This document shows positions 35,151-63,766 of a DNA stretch of 64,000 nt, piece by piece. Both the position numbers and the translations under genes were made by a program. Origin of the DNA: Candidatus Iainarchaeum sp. (GTDB lineage: Archaea > B1Sed10-29 > WALL01); the NCBI GenBank assembly GCA_021162685.1, contig JAGGYF010000028.1, forward strand, positions 4,699 to 68,698. Direction: 5' to 3'. Position 1 is the first letter of the stretch; each line of letters opens with the position of its first letter. A model generated the notes under the pieces. It made no database searches. It was given only the letters and a program-made list of their open reading frames with translations, and was not told the origin of the DNA.

Positions 35151-35539
35151 GCACAAAAGAGAAGTGGGGGATAGCCCATATCTATGCATCAGCAAACAAT
35201 ACAATAATAACAATAACAGACCTTACTGGAGCTGAAACATTTGCTAAGTGTTCTGGCGGTATGGTTGTTGACCAGGACTCAAAGCAGGGTTCTCCATATG
35301 CTGCAATGGAAGCTGCACTAAAAGCAGCTGAACAAGCAATGGCAAAAGGAATAACAGGAGTACATGTCAAGATAAGGGCACCTGGTGGACATAAATCAAA
35401 GCATCCTGGTAAAGGTGCGCAGGGAGCAATAAGGGCACTAACCAGGGCAGGATTGAGAATAGGAAAAATAGAAGATGTAACGCCAATCCCACATGATGGA
35501 ACAAAGGCTCCTGGTGGAAAGAGAGGGAGGCGTATCTGA
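35147..35539 (+). CDS. rps11: 30S ribosomal protein S11
   Basis: [22 protein letters not shown] typical of S11. Confidence 0.9.
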
Positions 35540-36312
35540 TGAGGGTAAAGGTTCTTGAAAGCAAGCCAAATAAAGTAAAGCTTCATATAAGCGGCACAAA
35601 ACCCGTTATTGTTAACTCTTTAAGAAGGGCAATCCTGGGTCTAGTACCCGCGATGGCAATAACAGAGGTGAACATATACGAAAATACATCCGTGATGTTT
35701 GATGAATATATTGCGCACAGGCTTGCAATGATTCCACTAACAACAGATTTGAAAACATATAAGATGCCAGAGGAATGCGAGGGAGGTGGATATAATACAT
35801 GTTCTGTTGATTTGAGTTTAGATGTAAGCGGACCAAAGATGGTTTATTCCTCTGATCTCAAAACAACTGACCCAAAAGTAAAACCTGTTAGTGGAAAGAT
35901 ACCTATTATTGAACTTCAACCAGGGCAACGCCTGAGGCTTGAGGCAAAAGCAACATTGGGTTATCCAGAAGAGCATGTGAGATGGCAGGTTGGAAACGCA
36001 GCATATAGATATGTATTTAACGTGAAGATAGGAAAGGAATGTGAGAACTGTCTTGAATGTGTTAAAGCGTGTCCAAAAAAGGTATTAAAGAAAGGAAGTA
36101 AGAAAATAGAGGTCGCAAATCCGCTAGAATGCAATGGATGTGGCATATGCAAAGAGGTATGCAAAAAGGGCGCCATTGAAATAATACCAGACACAACATC
36201 ATTCATATTCACCATAGAGACAAACGGGCAGATGAGTGCGAGGGACGCACTTAACACAGCAGTAAGTGCACTCCAGAAAAAGGTCTCAGAGATGAGAGAG
36301 ATAATGAAATAA
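35539..36312 (+). CDS. rpoD: DNA-directed RNA polymerase subunit D
   Basis: RpoD/Rpb3 fold with inserted 4Fe-4S ferredoxin-like Cys clusters (CENCLECVKACP, CNGCGICKEVC). Confidence 0.9.
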   Translation: MRVKVLESKPNKVKLHISGTKPVIVNSLRRAILGLVPAMAITEVNIYENTSVMFDEYIAHRLAMIPLTTDLKTYKMPEECEGGGYNTCSVDLSLDVSGPKMVYSSDLKTTDPKVKPVSGKIPIIELQPGQRLRLEAKATLGYPEEHVRWQVGNAAYRYVFNVKIGKECENCLECVKACPKKVLKKGSKKIEVANPLECNGCGICKEVCKKGAIEIIPDTTSFIFTIETNGQMSARDALNTAVSALQKKVSEMREIMK

Positions 36313-36314
36313 AT

Positions 36315-36433
36315 GCGGGGGTGCCGGAGCCTCCCTCGTGCCTTCATTGGCACGAAGGCTCAAGTGGTCAAACGGGCAGGATTGAGGGTCCTGTGGCTTA
36401 GTGCCTGCGCGAGTTCGAAGCTCGTCCCCCGCA
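36315..36433 (+). tRNA. tRNA-Leu (anticodon GAG) with a roughly 30-35 nt intron in the D-loop (non-canonical position)
   Basis: Acceptor GCGGGGG/CCCCCGC, anticodon stem CAGGA/UCCUG with loop UUGAGGG, long variable arm, T-arm GCGAG-UUCGAAG-CUCGU, discriminator A; the extra segment containing hairpin CCCUCGUGCC-UUCAUU-GGCACGAAGG lies between D-stem strands at about 36330-36361. Confidence 0.75.
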
Positions 36434-36662
36434 CTGACCAAATTACATATGGTCGTTCGTGGTGGGATACAAGATCCCACTTACAGCAGGAGGGGGTGTG
36501 GAATCCGAGGGTTTCCAGGGGGAACCTGGGTTCCCCATAAAGGACGCTCTGACCAAATTACATATGGTCGTTCGTGGTGTGGCATAAAGCCACACTATTA
36601 GAGGGGGATGTGCCCCCATAAAGGACGCTCTTCGAAGCTCGTCCCCCGCACTGACCAAATTA
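36434..36662 (+). repeat. tRNA-Leu-proximal repeat array: two tandem units (C-element + GC hairpin + ATAAAGGACGCTCT) ending in a 32-nt duplicate of the tRNA-Leu 3' end
   Basis: Unit A 36434-36550, unit B 36551-36631; C-elements at 36438-36480 and 36553-36603; ATAAAGGACGCTCT at 36537-36550 and 36618-36631; TTCGAAGCTCGTCCCCCGCACTGACCAAATTA at 36414-36445 and 36631-36662. Confidence 0.7.
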
Positions 36663-41256: not shown

Positions 41257-41888
41257 AAGCCATTGTATTTGACATAGATGGTGTGCTTGTGGATACTGTA
41301 GGCAGCTTCTATACTGCATACAATGAAGCTATGAAAAGTGTTGGGAGTTACATTACAGAAAAGGAGTACCTTGATAGGGTTCACCTGCAAGGCTATAAAA
41401 TATTTGAAGAGATTCTGAAGATTAGAGGGATTGAAGCAGATGCAAAAGAGTTGAATCATTTGAAAAATAAGATTGTCAATAATATGCTTAAGAATGCAAA
41501 ACTGAAAAAAGGTGTTAATGAAATATTGAAAATGTTGAGTGAAAACAATATTAAGTATTGTATTGCAACAGCATCAGAACGTGAACAAACTGAAATCATA
41601 TTAAATGCTGTTGGCATTTCACATCTATTTCCCATAGTTGTGACTGCAAGTGATACTGAAGATGATGATGTAAAACCAAATATATATTACATTGCAGCAG
41701 ATAGACTTAAAGAACCAATAGAAAATTGCGTATTGGTTGAGGATTCACTGCATAATATCAAAGTGGGAAAATCTATAGGCATGGGCTGCATTGGTGTCAT
41801 TGGCAAATATTCAAAAGAAGGACTAAAAGAGGCTGCAGACTATGTTGTAGGACATGTTGGAGAGATAAAAACGGAGTGGTTAAGATGA
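41253..41888 (+). CDS. HAD-superfamily hydrolase (subfamily IA-like)
   Basis: Motif I VFDIDGVLVDT; ATGA overlap with the ubiX stop. Confidence 0.7.
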   Translation: MKAIVFDIDGVLVDTVGSFYTAYNEAMKSVGSYITEKEYLDRVHLQGYKIFEEILKIRGIEADAKELNHLKNKIVNNMLKNAKLKKGVNEILKMLSENNIKYCIATASEREQTEIILNAVGISHLFPIVVTASDTEDDDVKPNIYYIAADRLKEPIENCVLVEDSLHNIKVGKSIGMGCIGVIGKYSKEGLKEAADYVVGHVGEIKTEWLR

Positions 41889-43093
41889 ACCTAACAAAAG
41901 AAGAACAGAAAATGCTTGATGGAGAATATGGAGAGGGTGTACAAAAAGCAATGGAAATCATTGTTGCCCTTGGGAAGATTTATGGCGCTGAAAATTTGGT
42001 AGAAGTTGCATCAGTCCAAGTGGCAGGAGTCTCCTACAAGAATCTGGGAGATGCAGGCATTGAATTTTTAGAGGAGTGGGCATCAAAGGGGGCCAAGGTC
42101 AAAGTGCCAACAACATTGAACCCAGCAGGCATGGACCTTGATGACTGGAAAAGCATTGGATTTGCAGAGGAATTTGCTGATAAGCAATTAGAGGTTATTA
42201 AAGCATTTAGTAAAATGGGTATCCCACCGACATGCACATGCACGCCATATCTTGCTGGTAATATCCCAAAATTTGGCGACCATATCGCATGGGCTGAGAG
42301 TTCTGCTGTCTCATTTGCAAACTCTGTCATAGGTGCTAGAACAAATAGAGAAGGAGGACCATCTGCTATTGCAGCAGCAGTAACAGGAAGAACAGCAAAT
42401 TTTGGGTATCATCTTGATGAAAACAGGGTGGCAACATTTAAGATCATTGTTGAAGCAGACATGAAAGATACAAGTGATTTTGGTGCATTGGGGTACTGGA
42501 CAGGAAAACAATTGCGTAATAAAGTGCCTTTCTTTGTTGGTATAAAACACGCTACTACTGATTGCCTAAAATCGCTTGGCGCTGCCTCTGCTGCTAGTGG
42601 AGGTATTGCTCTGTACCATATTGAAAATATAACAGCTGAAGCAAGAGCAAAAGCAATGCTCAGCGATGACCATGAAACAGTCACATTTACAGATAAAGAG
42701 AAAAGAGATGTATTTGAAGCCATTGGCTTTTCTGAATCAGAAATAGACCTTGTTGTCTTTGGGTGCCCACATGCAAGTCTTGAAGAAGTGAGAACAATCG
42801 CAGAACGTGTAAAAGGAAAAAAACTCAAAGCAATGTTATGGATAACAACTTCAAAGCAAGTAAAATCTATGGCTGAGAGGATGGGTCTTGTAAAGGATAT
42901 AGAGGACGCTGGGGGTTATATCATAGCTGACATGTGCGCTGTTGTTGCTCCGGTAAAGTCGTTTGGGTTCAAGAACATAGCTGTAAATTCCGGAAAATAT
43001 GCGTGGTATCTTCCAAACCAAGGCTTTAATGTAAGGTTTGGCTCAACAGAAAAGTGCATAGAAGCAGCAATAACAGGAAGGTGGGAACCATGA
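41885..43093 (+). CDS. aconitase X large subunit (DUF521), putative phosphomevalonate dehydratase large subunit
   Basis: AcnX catalytic-domain family; paired with the DUF126 swivel subunit downstream. Confidence 0.8.
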   Translation: MNLTKEEQKMLDGEYGEGVQKAMEIIVALGKIYGAENLVEVASVQVAGVSYKNLGDAGIEFLEEWASKGAKVKVPTTLNPAGMDLDDWKSIGFAEEFADKQLEVIKAFSKMGIPPTCTCTPYLAGNIPKFGDHIAWAESSAVSFANSVIGARTNREGGPSAIAAAVTGRTANFGYHLDENRVATFKIIVEADMKDTSDFGALGYWTGKQLRNKVPFFVGIKHATTDCLKSLGAASAASGGIALYHIENITAEARAKAMLSDDHETVTFTDKEKRDVFEAIGFSESEIDLVVFGCPHASLEEVRTIAERVKGKKLKAMLWITTSKQVKSMAERMGLVKDIEDAGGYIIADMCAVVAPVKSFGFKNIAVNSGKYAWYLPNQGFNVRFGSTEKCIEAAITGRWEP

Positions 43094-43476
43094 TTGAATT
43101 GCATGGAAGAATTGTAAAGAGGGGTGCTGCAGAAGGAATCGCGCTCGTATCAAATGAACCTATTGGATTCTATGGTAATATTGACCCAGACACAGGAATC
43201 GTCATAGAAAAAGGACATCCTCTTGAAGGGCAATGTATTGCTGGAAAGGTTCTTGTTTTCCCGACAGGAAAAGGGAGTACTGTTGGTTCTTATACCATGT
43301 ACAGACTAAAGAAGAATGGAAAAGCTCCTATAGCAATAATAAATGAGGAGAGTGAACCCATAATCGCCGTTGGTGCTATAATATCAGATATACCACTAGT
43401 TGACAAGGTAGATATCTCAAAAATAAGGACAGGAGACAAGGTCAAAATTGACGGGGAGGTCGTTCGCATTGAGTGA
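43090..43476 (+). CDS. aconitase X swivel-domain small subunit (DUF126), putative phosphomevalonate dehydratase small subunit
   Basis: MIELHGRIVKRGAAEG...GKVLVFPTGKGSTVGSY matches the DUF126 pattern; ATGA overlap with the large subunit. Confidence 0.75.
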   Translation: MIELHGRIVKRGAAEGIALVSNEPIGFYGNIDPDTGIVIEKGHPLEGQCIAGKVLVFPTGKGSTVGSYTMYRLKKNGKAPIAIINEESEPIIAVGAIISDIPLVDKVDISKIRTGDKVKIDGEVVRIE

Positions 43477-43477
43477 A

Positions 43478-45055
43478 TTGGTGCTTTTGAAACTTGGTGG
43501 TTCCCTCATAACGGATAAAACAAAACCAGAGACAGCAAGGGTTGATGTAATAAGAAGGATTGCACAAGAGATAAAGAGAGCATTAACCAAGAGGGGAGAT
43601 ATAAAGTTAATTATAGGACATGGTGGTGGTTCATTTCCTCACTATCCTGCAAAGAGGTATAGAGTGAATGAGGGGATAATAAACAAGGATTCATGGAGAG
43701 GGTTTGCTGAGACAAGAGCAGCAGCATCAAAGCTGAATCAGATTGTTACAGAGATATTTCTTGAGGAAGGGCTGGATGTAGTATCACTACAACCGAGTTC
43801 ATCTGTTCTCTGTGAAAATGGGGTTATAGTGCATATGGACCTGAGGCAGATAAAATTCCTCATAGATAGACATCAGATCCCGGTAACCTATGGTGATGCT
43901 GTTTTGGACAGAGAAAAAGGATGTACAATTGTGTCAACAGAGGCACTGTTTGACTATATTGCACGAAAGCTTTTTCCAGATAGGATAATACTAGCAGGAG
44001 AGGTTGAGGGCGTCTATGATTCAGACCCGCATAAAAATCCAAATGCAAAACTTATTCCGGAGATAACAAACAAGAACTTTGAAAAAATCAAAAAGATGCT
44101 CACTGGTTCACATGGTTATGATGTAACAGGCGGCATGGCAACAAAAATAGAGAGCATGTATAACCTGTTACATATTCTCCCATCAATGAAGGTGCAGATT
44201 ATATCCGGAAAAATTCCAGGTGTTATTGAGAAAGCAATTGTTGGAAGAGAACACATCGGAACAATTATGAGATACTTGGGAAAGAGCAAGATACCTAAGA
44301 TAATTGTTGTTGAGGTTAATGGCATTATTGTAAAAAATGGCTTTAAGCCGTGGAAAGAAGCATTAACTATGATGGTAGAAAGAGGAGATATACCGCGAGA
44401 TGCATGGGAGAGAGAAATAAAGCCAATTGTTGATGGATATCTATCAAAGAAGATAGATAGAGATGAAGCAGTGAAACTTGTTATGATGGGCGTTGCAAAG
44501 GCACTGAAAGGAAAACCATACAAAGAGATAGAAGGAGTGATAAACAAAACAATGGAGAAGGTTAGGCAGAACTATGATCCATTTGTGATAGATATGCTGA
44601 AATATGCAAAGAATGAAAGAGGTTATAAGCTGGCAACAATCTCAGCAAATTTTTATGACATTGCAAAACATATTGCCAAGGATATTGGCGCAGAATATGT
44701 TTATGATACTACACTTGGCGTCAAAAACGGAAAACTTACAGGAACATTAAAGGGAGAATTCATGACATCCGTTGGAAAGTTGTGGGCAGTGAGAGACCTC
44801 ATGGAGAGAGCAAAATGTGTGAAGGAACGTATGATATACATAGGTAATAGGATATCAGATTGGAAAGCAATGAACGAATGCGGCATTAGCATACTATACA
44901 AACCAGATTTGAGTGTAAAGGCAGAAAAAACACTTGAAGAAAAGGAGTGGATTAAGGAGATACTAAAAGTCATGAGGACAAATGAGTTGAGCAACCTGAT
45001 TGTGATATCAAACAAATCAGACACAAAAAAACTGAAGGAGATCATAGATAGGTGA
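43478..45055 (+). CDS. ipk: isopentenyl phosphate kinase fused to a C-terminal degenerate HAD-IB (phosphoserine-phosphatase-like) domain
   Basis: N-terminal amino-acid-kinase fold LLKLGGSLITDK...GHGGGSF; the C-terminal 270 aa resemble HAD-IB, but motif I (DxDxT) is VEVNG and motif IV is GNRISDW; the TTG/GTG start just after the upstream stop is inferred. Confidence 0.7.
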   Translation: MVLLKLGGSLITDKTKPETARVDVIRRIAQEIKRALTKRGDIKLIIGHGGGSFPHYPAKRYRVNEGIINKDSWRGFAETRAAASKLNQIVTEIFLEEGLDVVSLQPSSSVLCENGVIVHMDLRQIKFLIDRHQIPVTYGDAVLDREKGCTIVSTEALFDYIARKLFPDRIILAGEVEGVYDSDPHKNPNAKLIPEITNKNFEKIKKMLTGSHGYDVTGGMATKIESMYNLLHILPSMKVQIISGKIPGVIEKAIVGREHIGTIMRYLGKSKIPKIIVVEVNGIIVKNGFKPWKEALTMMVERGDIPRDAWEREIKPIVDGYLSKKIDRDEAVKLVMMGVAKALKGKPYKEIEGVINKTMEKVRQNYDPFVIDMLKYAKNERGYKLATISANFYDIAKHIAKDIGAEYVYDTTLGVKNGKLTGTLKGEFMTSVGKLWAVRDLMERAKCVKERMIYIGNRISDWKAMNECGISILYKPDLSVKAEKTLEEKEWIKEILKVMRTNELSNLIVISNKSDTKKLKEIIDR

Positions 45056-45059
45056 AAGG

Positions 45060-45578
45060 ATGAAAGAAACAGAAGTTGAGATTGAAATAAAACATCTCGC
45101 ACCAGTACGGAAAAGGTTGGAATCAATAGGTGTACTTGTGGAGAAAGCATTATTTAGGGATGTGTATTTTGATAAAAAAATGTTTTTGAAAGGAGCAAGA
45201 GTAAGATTGAGAGAGAGAAAGGTCAGATATCCACATAAGAAATATGAAGCAAAATTAACACTCAAAAAACCAAGAATAAAAGGTGGTATCCAGAGGAGTG
45301 AAGAACTTGAGGTTAGATTAGATGACTTTAAGACAATGTATAAGATACTAGAAAGGTTATACGGTCCACCCTACTTTGATGAAGTACTATCTGTTGAGAG
45401 ATACAAGGTGGGCAGTTCAGTCGTGGACTTGAGAGCAGTAAAAGGTCTGTTTAAATATGTTGAGATTGAGGGGAATACTAAACAGATAAAGCGATTAGAG
45501 AAGAGACTTGGAATTGTAGGAAAGAGAATAACGGAGGGAGCATTCAAAAGAATATGTAAAATGCGGGGATTACTATGA
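45060..45578 (+). CDS. CYTH-domain (triphosphate tunnel metalloenzyme) protein
   Basis: N-terminal EVEIEIK (ExExK) motif and alternating basic and acidic beta-strands. Confidence 0.7.
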   Translation: MKETEVEIEIKHLAPVRKRLESIGVLVEKALFRDVYFDKKMFLKGARVRLRERKVRYPHKKYEAKLTLKKPRIKGGIQRSEELEVRLDDFKTMYKILERLYGPPYFDEVLSVERYKVGSSVVDLRAVKGLFKYVEIEGNTKQIKRLEKRLGIVGKRITEGAFKRICKMRGLL

Positions 45579-46627
45579 TAAAAAAACGAAAACTTGACCA
45601 TATTGAGATATGCACAGAGAAGGATGTGGAGGTTGGGAGCAATTGGTTTGAATATGTTCAGTTAATACATAATGCTGTTCCTGAGATAAATCTTGACGAT
45701 GTAGAGACAAAAACCACATTTCTCGGAAAAGAATTGAAAGCACCACTCATGGTCGCTGCTATAACTGGAGGAGTAGAAGAAGCCAAAGAGATAAACAAAT
45801 CACTGGCAAAGGTATGTGAGGAGTTCGGTATTGCATTCGGCCTTGGCTCACAAAGGGCAATGATAGAACATCCAGAACTATGGGATACATACTATGTAAG
45901 GGATGTTGCACCTAATATTCCTATTTTTGGAAATATTGGACTAGCAAATCTTGGTGATATAGGTATCAATGAGATTATAAAATCTATCAAAAGGGTTGAT
46001 GCAGATTTTCTGTGCGTGCATCTCAATGCTGCCCAGGAAGCAGCACAACCAGAAGGGAACACGCAATTTGCAGAGAAGATAAAGGAGTTGGCAAAACTAT
46101 CAAAGAAAATCCCCATAATTGCGAAAGAGGTTGGCAATGGCATATCAAGAGAAACAGCGATATTGCTGAAGGAGGCTGGAGTAAAGGCCATAGATGTCGG
46201 AGGATTTGGGGGAACAAGTTGGATCAAGGTTGAGGAGTACAGGAGTAAGAATAGTAGTGGATTTGTCAATTGGGGAATACCCACTGCTGCAGCCGTTATG
46301 GAATGTAGTGCTGTTGGTCTACCAATTATTGCAACAGGAGGCATAAGAAGAGGATTAGAATGTGCAAAAGCCATTGCGCTTGGTGCAAGCATATGTGGTA
46401 TGGCGTTGCCCTGTCTAAGATGGCATTACAAAGGAAAACTTAGGGAAAACATGAGCAATGTAATAAAAGAATTGAAAACCGCGATGTTCTTAACAGGAAG
46501 TAGAAGTATAGGTGAGCTAAAACAAACGAATGCTGTTATATCAGGCAAACTAAAGGAATGGTGTGAGGCGAGGTCTATTCCTATAAAACATTATGCAATG
46601 CGGAGAAGTCATTTAAAGATGTTCTAA
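45575..46627 (+). CDS. fni: isopentenyl-diphosphate delta-isomerase, type 2 (FMN-dependent)
   Basis: TIM-barrel IDI-2 motifs (LMVAAITGG, HLNAAQE, GGFGGTSW, ATGGIRRG). Confidence 0.85.
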   Translation: MIKKRKLDHIEICTEKDVEVGSNWFEYVQLIHNAVPEINLDDVETKTTFLGKELKAPLMVAAITGGVEEAKEINKSLAKVCEEFGIAFGLGSQRAMIEHPELWDTYYVRDVAPNIPIFGNIGLANLGDIGINEIIKSIKRVDADFLCVHLNAAQEAAQPEGNTQFAEKIKELAKLSKKIPIIAKEVGNGISRETAILLKEAGVKAIDVGGFGGTSWIKVEEYRSKNSSGFVNWGIPTAAAVMECSAVGLPIIATGGIRRGLECAKAIALGASICGMALPCLRWHYKGKLRENMSNVIKELKTAMFLTGSRSIGELKQTNAVISGKLKEWCEARSIPIKHYAMRRSHLKMF

Positions 46628-63635: not shown

Positions 63636-63766
63636 AGCCCCGTAGTCTAGTGGCCAAGGATGCAGGCCTTTGGAGCCTGCGACGGCGGTTCGAAAATGAG
63701 GAACCTCCAGCGGGTTCCTCATCCACCTCCAGCAACCACTGGAGTTCGAAAATCCGCCCGGGGCTA
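63636..63766 (+). tRNA. tRNA-Gln (anticodon UUG) with a roughly 56-nt intron inside the T-loop (non-canonical position)
   Basis: Acceptor AGCCCCG/CGGGGCU, D-stem GUCU/GGAU, anticodon stem CAGGC/GCCUG with loop CUUUGGA, T-stem GGCGG/CCGCC; the T-loop is interrupted, with GTTCGAAAAT repeated at 63688-63697 and 63744-63753. Confidence 0.7.

Follow-up and report, generated by a model that had tools for sequence, protein, structure and literature searches.

Introns in the D-loop of archaeal tRNAs, cut by splicing endonucleases of broad specificity, have been described before, and on this point the literature agreed with the sequence-only reading that the present analysis followed up (PMC3241643, PMC5829648). 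The D-loop intron of A. pernix tRNA-Thr was cleaved in vitro by a broad-specificity EndA (PMC3241643), and M. kandleri tRNA-Glu carries a D-loop intron at position 20b/21, whose cleavage in vitro is likewise due to a broad-specificity EndA (PMC5829648). Disrupted tRNA genes in DPANN archaea are discussed in PMC5829648 and PMC3239211; the latter describes ARMAN-2, a DPANN member, as having highly disrupted tRNAs, introns at 59/60 among them, and an epsilon2 EndA. Kaneta et al. associated a higher degree of tRNA disruption in several DPANN lineages with alpha4 enzymes that have an L3 loop, and noted that the tRNA sets of such genomes are incompletely predicted (PMC5829648). A limited search for literature on tRNA introns in Diapherotrites specifically found none, which is no proof of absence.

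We consider it highly probable that positions 36315-36433 of the window, that is, of the whole 64-kb stretch of DNA that was analysed, are a functional DPANN tRNA-Leu(GAG) gene whose D-loop holds a 33-nt, protein-spliced intron of the bulge-helix-bulge (BHB) type between C17 and U17a. A D-loop intron is a known kind of feature, and this one is a newly added case. It resembles the D-loop introns of A. pernix tRNA-Thr(UGU), M. kandleri tRNA-Glu(UUC) and many Thermoproteales tRNAs in being short and predicted to be protein-spliced, in the exon-intron pairing that gives rise to a BHB, in the canonical tRNA that excision restores and in its presence or absence among orthologues. It differs from them in its host, a DPANN archaeon (Diapherotrites/Iainarchaeia-like), in its position at 17/17a and in that residues 13-16 supply the exon side of the central helix. 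By contrast, most of the D-loop introns found in orthologous tRNA-Leu genes are located at 20b/21, and the motif in the window has a register ambiguity of one base. With ARMAN-2 and Ca. Micrarchaeum, as described in the available parts of PMC3239211, the comparison concerns a DPANN genome in which non-canonical introns occur in a large share of the tRNA genes, including ones at 59/60 as in the tRNA-Gln gene of the window, whereas no D-loop intron is found among the unusual ARMAN-2 tRNAs pictured there. The canonical 37/38 intron, which the orthologues L081 and L009 carry, shares the predicted enzymology of EndA and an RtcB-type ligase and the 3-4-3 BHB logic, but differs in location, since the anticodon loop of the window gene is intact.

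Structure and setting of the interrupted gene

The strands of the D-stem are 45 nt apart (36328-36372), as had been seen in the sequence-only reading. The gene is composed as follows.

36315-36433, + strand: interrupted tRNA-Leu(GAG), complete pre-tRNA body without encoded CCA (read by hand; ARAGORN after excision; covariance model)
36315-36321, + strand: acceptor 5' strand GCGGGGG (read by hand)
36322-36323, + strand: U8 and G9 (read by hand)
36324-36327, + strand: D-stem 5' strand CCG(G) (read by hand)
36373-36375, + strand: D-stem 3' strand CGG (read by hand)
36384-36386, + strand: anticodon GAG (read by hand)
36433, + strand: discriminator A, A73 (read by hand)
36315-36331, + strand: 5' exon, comprising the acceptor 5' strand, U8, G9, the D-stem 5' strand and D-loop residues A14, G15, C16 and C17 (orthologue alignment)
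36332-36364, + strand: predicted intron of 33 nt between C17 and U17a (sole gap against intronless orthologues; BHB candidates; shuffles)
36365-36433, + strand: 3' exon, comprising U17a, G18, G19, the D-stem 3' strand, the anticodon, variable and T-arms, the acceptor 3' strand and A73 (covariance model, alignment)

The anticodon arm, CAGGA-UUGAGGG-UCCUG, was read by hand without interruption. The gene reads as a class-II tRNA, with a long variable arm, a T-arm GCGAG/UUCGAAG/CUCGU and an acceptor 3' strand CCCCCGC, and in-silico removal of the 33-nt insert gave a canonical class-II tRNA-Leu. Neither ARAGORN (default and intron option) nor Rfam (gathering and permissive thresholds) called the gene at 36315-36433, and the intron mode of ARAGORN called only tRNA-Ser and tRNA-Pro. 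A full-length tRNA-Leu(gag) starting at 36315 was called by this program only once at least 33 nt of the D-loop had been excised. Since the anticodon loop is intact and the intron is located elsewhere, tools that restrict introns to 37/38 miss this gene.

The first assignment as tRNA-Leu(GAG) was thus borne out by hand reading and by the call after excision of ARAGORN, one of the programs that had been suggested as a check. The supposed surplus of roughly 30-35 nt could be narrowed to 33 nt by alignment to intronless orthologues, and the imperfect hairpin that had been noticed in it, CCCUCGUGCC (36333-36342) against GGCACGAAGG (36349-36358), was confirmed with 9 pairs and one C.A mismatch. Placement of the intron in the D-loop rather than at 37/38 also held, the anticodon arm being uninterrupted and the insert absent from orthologues in which the exons are conserved base for base.

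Self-splicing introns of groups I and II have a conserved catalytic RNA core of hundreds of nucleotides. The insert has just 33 nt and matched no such Rfam family. Nor is this a split or permuted tRNA gene, as the two exons follow each other in the normal order within the single locus 36315-36433.

The locus lies in an archaeal cluster with the gene order S13-S4-S11-RpoD-[tRNA-Leu]-L18e-L13-S9-...-tRNA-Pro-S2. The rpoD gene occupies 35539-36312 and tRNA-Leu begins 2 nt past its stop codon; co-transcription with the r-protein/rpoD operon and release by processing are therefore probable. RpoD of the window is 100% identical to an RpoD encoded on a 73-kb contig of a 'Candidatus Diapherotrites archaeon' metagenome-assembled genome (MAG), its next relatives reach at most 56%, and identity to proteins labelled Micrarchaeota is at most about 55%. 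Among species-representative genomes, the closest RpoD loci are labelled Micrarchaeota, 'archaeon' and Iainarchaeum. From the archaeal cluster, the RpoD identity and these labels we judge the host to be an uncultivated DPANN archaeon without close sequenced relatives.

Genes for EndA, RtcB or archease were not found within the 64-kb window, either by tblastn with an EndA sequence of M. jannaschii as query or by Pfam scans, which covered 40 distinct ORFs and were repeated at E <= 1 for seven of them. A row of genes on the + strand (41876-46624) resembles a cluster for isoprenoid precursors (mevalonate type); it encodes an AcnX swivel-domain protein, an amino-acid-kinase/HAD fusion and a protein similar to FMN-dependent dehydrogenases. 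Within this row, a 172-aa ORF (45060-45575) had no Pfam match even at E <= 1.

Precursor fold and cut register

The junctions of the insert form the following elements.

36323-36326, + strand: 5' strand of the outer helix h1, pairing with 36365-36368 as G.U, C-G, C-G, G.U (MFE and centroid folds)
36327-36330, + strand: exon strand GAGC of the central BHB helix, pairing with intron GCUC at 36358-36361 (folds, BHB scan)
36331-36335, + strand: 5'-side bulge region, predicted 5' splice site (folds, BHB scan)
36336-36355, + strand: hairpin inside the intron, helix h' of the motif, with seven base pairs (UCGUGCC/GGCACGA) closing the loop UUCAUU (folds)
36362-36364, + strand: 3'-side 3-nt bulge AAG, predicted 3' splice site (folds, BHB scan)

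In the whole precursor as in a 51-nt junction segment, the overall fold runs from the outer helix over a 3-nt bulge, the helix GAGC(CU)-(AG)GCUC and a second 3-nt bulge to the 7-bp hairpin. The MFE fold lengthens the central helix by 2 bp, to 36332/36356. Which bases form the bulges depends on the register: on the 5' side, the 31-nt register has CUC, the 33-nt register CCU (36330-36332) and the MFE fold CCC (36333-36335), and on the 3' side the 33-nt register has AGU (36363-36365). The junction segment folds at −25.1 kcal/mol with z = −4.5, a stability matched in 0 of 200 shuffles; for the whole precursor, z was −3.7. Both of the two best BHB candidates of the entire precursor lie at the insert (H = 4, h1 = 4, h3 = 8 and H = 3, h1 = 3, h3 = 9). 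When the insert was shuffled with the exons held fixed, counting a BHB only at a junction that restores a normal D-loop, one at least as good as the weaker register appeared in 26 of 20,000 sequences (0.13%) and one at least as good as the stronger register in 2 of 20,000. The scorer behind these numbers was home-made and not a validated predictor, and because the canonical introns of L081 and L009 fell outside its top hits it was used only jointly with the constraint that excision restore the tRNA.

A search for BHB motifs had been proposed as a further check on the sequence-only reading. MFE and centroid folds, the home-made scorer and the shuffles together gave, at the junctions, a BHB-type fold of the kind that characterizes non-canonical archaeal tRNA introns, relaxed variants included. 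The term relaxed, which the sequence-only reading had used for the specificity of the endonuclease, fits mainly the position and the one-base ambiguity of register, since in one register the motif is a near-strict 3-4-3 BHB.

In the proposed mechanism, exon residues 13-16 (GAGC) of the precursor would pair with GCUC at the intron's 3' end and residues 9-12 with the start of the 3' exon, while the remaining intron would fold as a hairpin. These pairings would place each splice site in a 3-nt bulge, with a short helix between the two bulges and one bulge on either strand, and a structure of this kind is what the archaeal splicing endonuclease EndA takes as its substrate. We infer that EndA would cut both bulges and that an RtcB-type ligase would join the exons, yielding a class-II tRNA-Leu with the D-loop AGCCUGGUCAA.

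Where exactly the cuts would fall was derived from the standard rule, by which a 4-bp central helix is followed 3' on either strand by a 3-nt bulge that is cut behind its second base. The established position of the anticodon-intron pair served as a check on this rule. Since the MFE fold has 6 bp instead of 4 between the bulges, no single register is a textbook BHB; the energies are −25.1 (MFE), −19.5 (31-nt register) and −17.9 kcal/mol (33-nt register). The alternative that survives best accepts the intron as real and lets it be cut in the strict 3-4-3 register, 36333-36363, so that 31 nt would leave and an unusually long D-loop, AGCCUGUGGUCAA, would result. This register has four standard pairs in its central helix, the top BHB score in the precursor and the lower energy of the two, as compared to three standard pairs and a G.A mismatch in the 33-nt register (36332-36364). 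Its product, however, would have a D-loop 2 nt longer than that of any orthologue, ARAGORN rejected the 36333-36363 excision as a full tRNA, and for the other resolved introns (L003, L088, L089, L015, L090 and the tRNA-Gln of the window) the cut rule yields a canonical loop. The D-loop left by the 33-nt excision corresponds in length and pattern to those of L001, L002, L081, L088 and L089, and the D-loops of tRNA-Ser and tRNA-Pro in the window, AGCCUGGUA and AGCUUGGUA, fit this register as well. With a U on either flank, excision of 36333-36365 would lead to the same product as that of 36332-36364. Two cut registers, shifted by a single base, are candidates. Going by the sequences at hand, the 33-nt register is favoured since it would restore the usual D-loop, and we regard a 31-nt cut as unlikely, though worth bearing in mind.

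Orthologous genes and further explanations

In many archaea a tRNA-Leu gene directly follows rpoD. The orthologous loci were sorted by intron state.

L002, L004, L028, L085: no intron
L081, L009, L021: intron at 37/38
L083, L032: T-loop intron
L003, L088, L089, L015 and probably L076, the latter without a clean register: D-loop intron at about 20b/21
L090: D-loop intron at 15/16

Two introns occur in L003 and L076, which also have one in the T-loop, and in L015 and L090, which also have one at 37/38. The insert of the window gene is absent from L001, L002, L004, L028 and L085, while the exons are conserved. Compared to the intronless L001 and L002, of which L001 ends after position 41 and is free of a D-loop intron in that part, the window exons agree base for base, with GCGGGGGTGCCGGAGCC before and TGGyCAAACGGGCAGGATTGAGGG after a 33-nt gap at 36332-36364 that is the sole difference; the 5' exon is identical to the first 17 nt of both genes. 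Eleven intronless tRNA-Leu genes were used to build a covariance model, which scored 36352-36433 with 59.7 bits (E = 4e-13), and no mismatch was found in any paired region from UGGUCAAAC to the 3' end.

For L003, L088, L089, L015 and L090 the cut rule gave a canonical D-loop, for L076 not cleanly so. In the D-loop introns at about 20b/21, the exon residues G18 G19 U20 C20a pair with GRCC at the intron end. By mimicking exon GGUCAA, the sequence GRCCAA at the end of every one of these introns is able to pair with it. The intron sequences of the orthologous tRNA-Leu genes have no relation to one another. At least six intron states were counted among DPANN and other uncultivated archaea: none, 15/16, 17/17a (the window), about 20b/21, 37/38 and T-loop, besides genes in which several of these are combined.

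The same window contains a second tRNA gene with a non-canonical intron.

63636-63766, + strand: uncalled tRNA-Gln(UUG) (found in a scan for GC-rich islands)
63695-63752, + strand: T-loop intron of 58 nt in tRNA-Gln at position 59/60 (BHB search)

Its BHB uses the T-stem as outer helix and UUCG/CGAA as central helix, and the bulges, AAA and AAU, would each be cut after the second A; the cut rule yields exactly UUCGAAU. The native gene was missed by ARAGORN and by Rfam at the gathering threshold, with a partial Rfam tRNA match of 22.4 bits, and ARAGORN called tRNA-Gln(ttg) after excision of the 58-nt insert. Two of the four tRNA genes in the window (Leu and Gln) hence carry non-canonical introns, and with a T-loop intron in tRNA-Gln beside the D-loop intron of tRNA-Leu the genome would have to process introns of this kind.

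One might suppose that the locus is a pseudogene, a tRNA-Leu disrupted by unrelated DNA from which no functional tRNA is produced. The silence of standard tRNA finders and the signs of rearrangement at the locus, where the final 20 nt of the tRNA, along with 12 nt of trailer, occur a second time 217 nt downstream, would agree with this. Yet the exons are undegenerate and identical to those of intronless orthologues over the aligned part, every stem pairs and the 3' exon reaches the covariance score given above. The BHB of the insert, which is rare in shuffles, spans the junction, a second tRNA of the window is similarly interrupted, and the gene is the sole tRNA at the conserved position between rpoD and L18e where relatives keep tRNA-Leu. 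We therefore think a pseudogene very unlikely.

Even less credit is due to the idea that the extra 33 nt are retained in the mature tRNA, unspliced, as an enlarged D-loop or extra arm. The stable hairpin of the insert could in principle project from the D-loop. In the fold, however, A14, G15, C16 and the 5' strand of the D-stem are consumed by pairing with the insert. The tertiary pairs U8-A14 and G15-48 belong to the established architecture of tRNA, and such pairing is incompatible with them and with the D-stem. Furthermore, no orthologue has such an arm, and the geometry is that of a BHB, not of an arm. That the insert is an artefact of metagenome assembly is hardly credible: the source is indeed a MAG contig, with exact 31-32-nt repeats of about k-mer size nearby, but an insert that pairs precisely with both flanking exons is not what one expects from a chimeric join, and independent genomes carry inserts at the site too.

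Downstream repeats and meaning for the lineage

The duplication mentioned above concerns positions 36414-36445 (TTCGAAGCTCGTCCCCCGCACTGACCAAATTA), of which 36631-36662 is an exact copy. Two tandem units on the + strand, 36434-36548 and 36549-36630, lie between the copies. The units agree at their ends (CTGACCAAATTACATATGGTCGTTCGTGGTG and CCCCATAAAGGACGCTC), with the same 31 nt at the start and the same 17-18 nt at the finish, but differ in their internal hairpins; the first hairpin has three base pairs in which both partners are altered. As alternative tRNA-Leu bodies, with the loops CAA and UAA at the anticodon position, the units scored at most 6 bits in the covariance model; they are without the T-stem 5' strand, have an A in place of U33 and show an imperfect D-stem strand. 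As sequences bounded by a BHB they did not rise above chance, the best score of 19 being reached in 28 of 150 shuffles. We also rejected, by reasoning, the duplicated tRNA 3' end as the mark of a large T-loop intron, since no BHB can form around the repeat. Tested as an att site, neither the duplicated 3' end nor the sequence of the units had a match in viral contigs, and Rfam at a permissive threshold returned chance hits only for the units, and no family.

The units together with the 32-nt duplicate (36434-36662) may have been left behind by a small element that recombines at the 3' end of tRNA-Leu. A remnant of recombination or of an att site, a structured RNA upstream of L18e and, in part, an assembly effect are possible alternatives, the last being conceivable because the repeat lengths are close to k-mer size. 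In L002 and L085/L086, GC-rich hairpin-forming sequence unrelated to the units of the window is found between tRNA-Leu and L18e. The gap between these two genes may hold a recurring structured spacer or leader.

The known splicing mechanism is left unchanged by the present case. It matters, rather, for what is expected in this genome: tRNA-Leu(GAG) is needed for the CUY leucine codons, yet it went unseen by ARAGORN and Rfam, and automated annotation would list the genome without tRNA-Leu(GAG) and without tRNA-Gln(UUG), gaps of a kind already noted for DPANN genomes (PMC5829648). To the Diapherotrites-like lineage, our data add a D-loop intron at 17/17a and a T-loop intron at 59/60. They predict in this lineage a splicing endonuclease of broad specificity, be it (alpha-beta)2, epsilon2 or alpha4 with a specificity loop. 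For the study of tRNA intron gain, the orthologous tRNA-Leu genes with their differing intron states offer a useful natural series, and we tentatively raise the possibility that the rpoD-linked tRNA-Leu is an intron hot spot outside the Thermoproteales. If this were so, introns would have been gained there repeatedly, possibly up to the present, and the endonuclease involved may be the little-studied alpha4 enzyme with an L3 loop.
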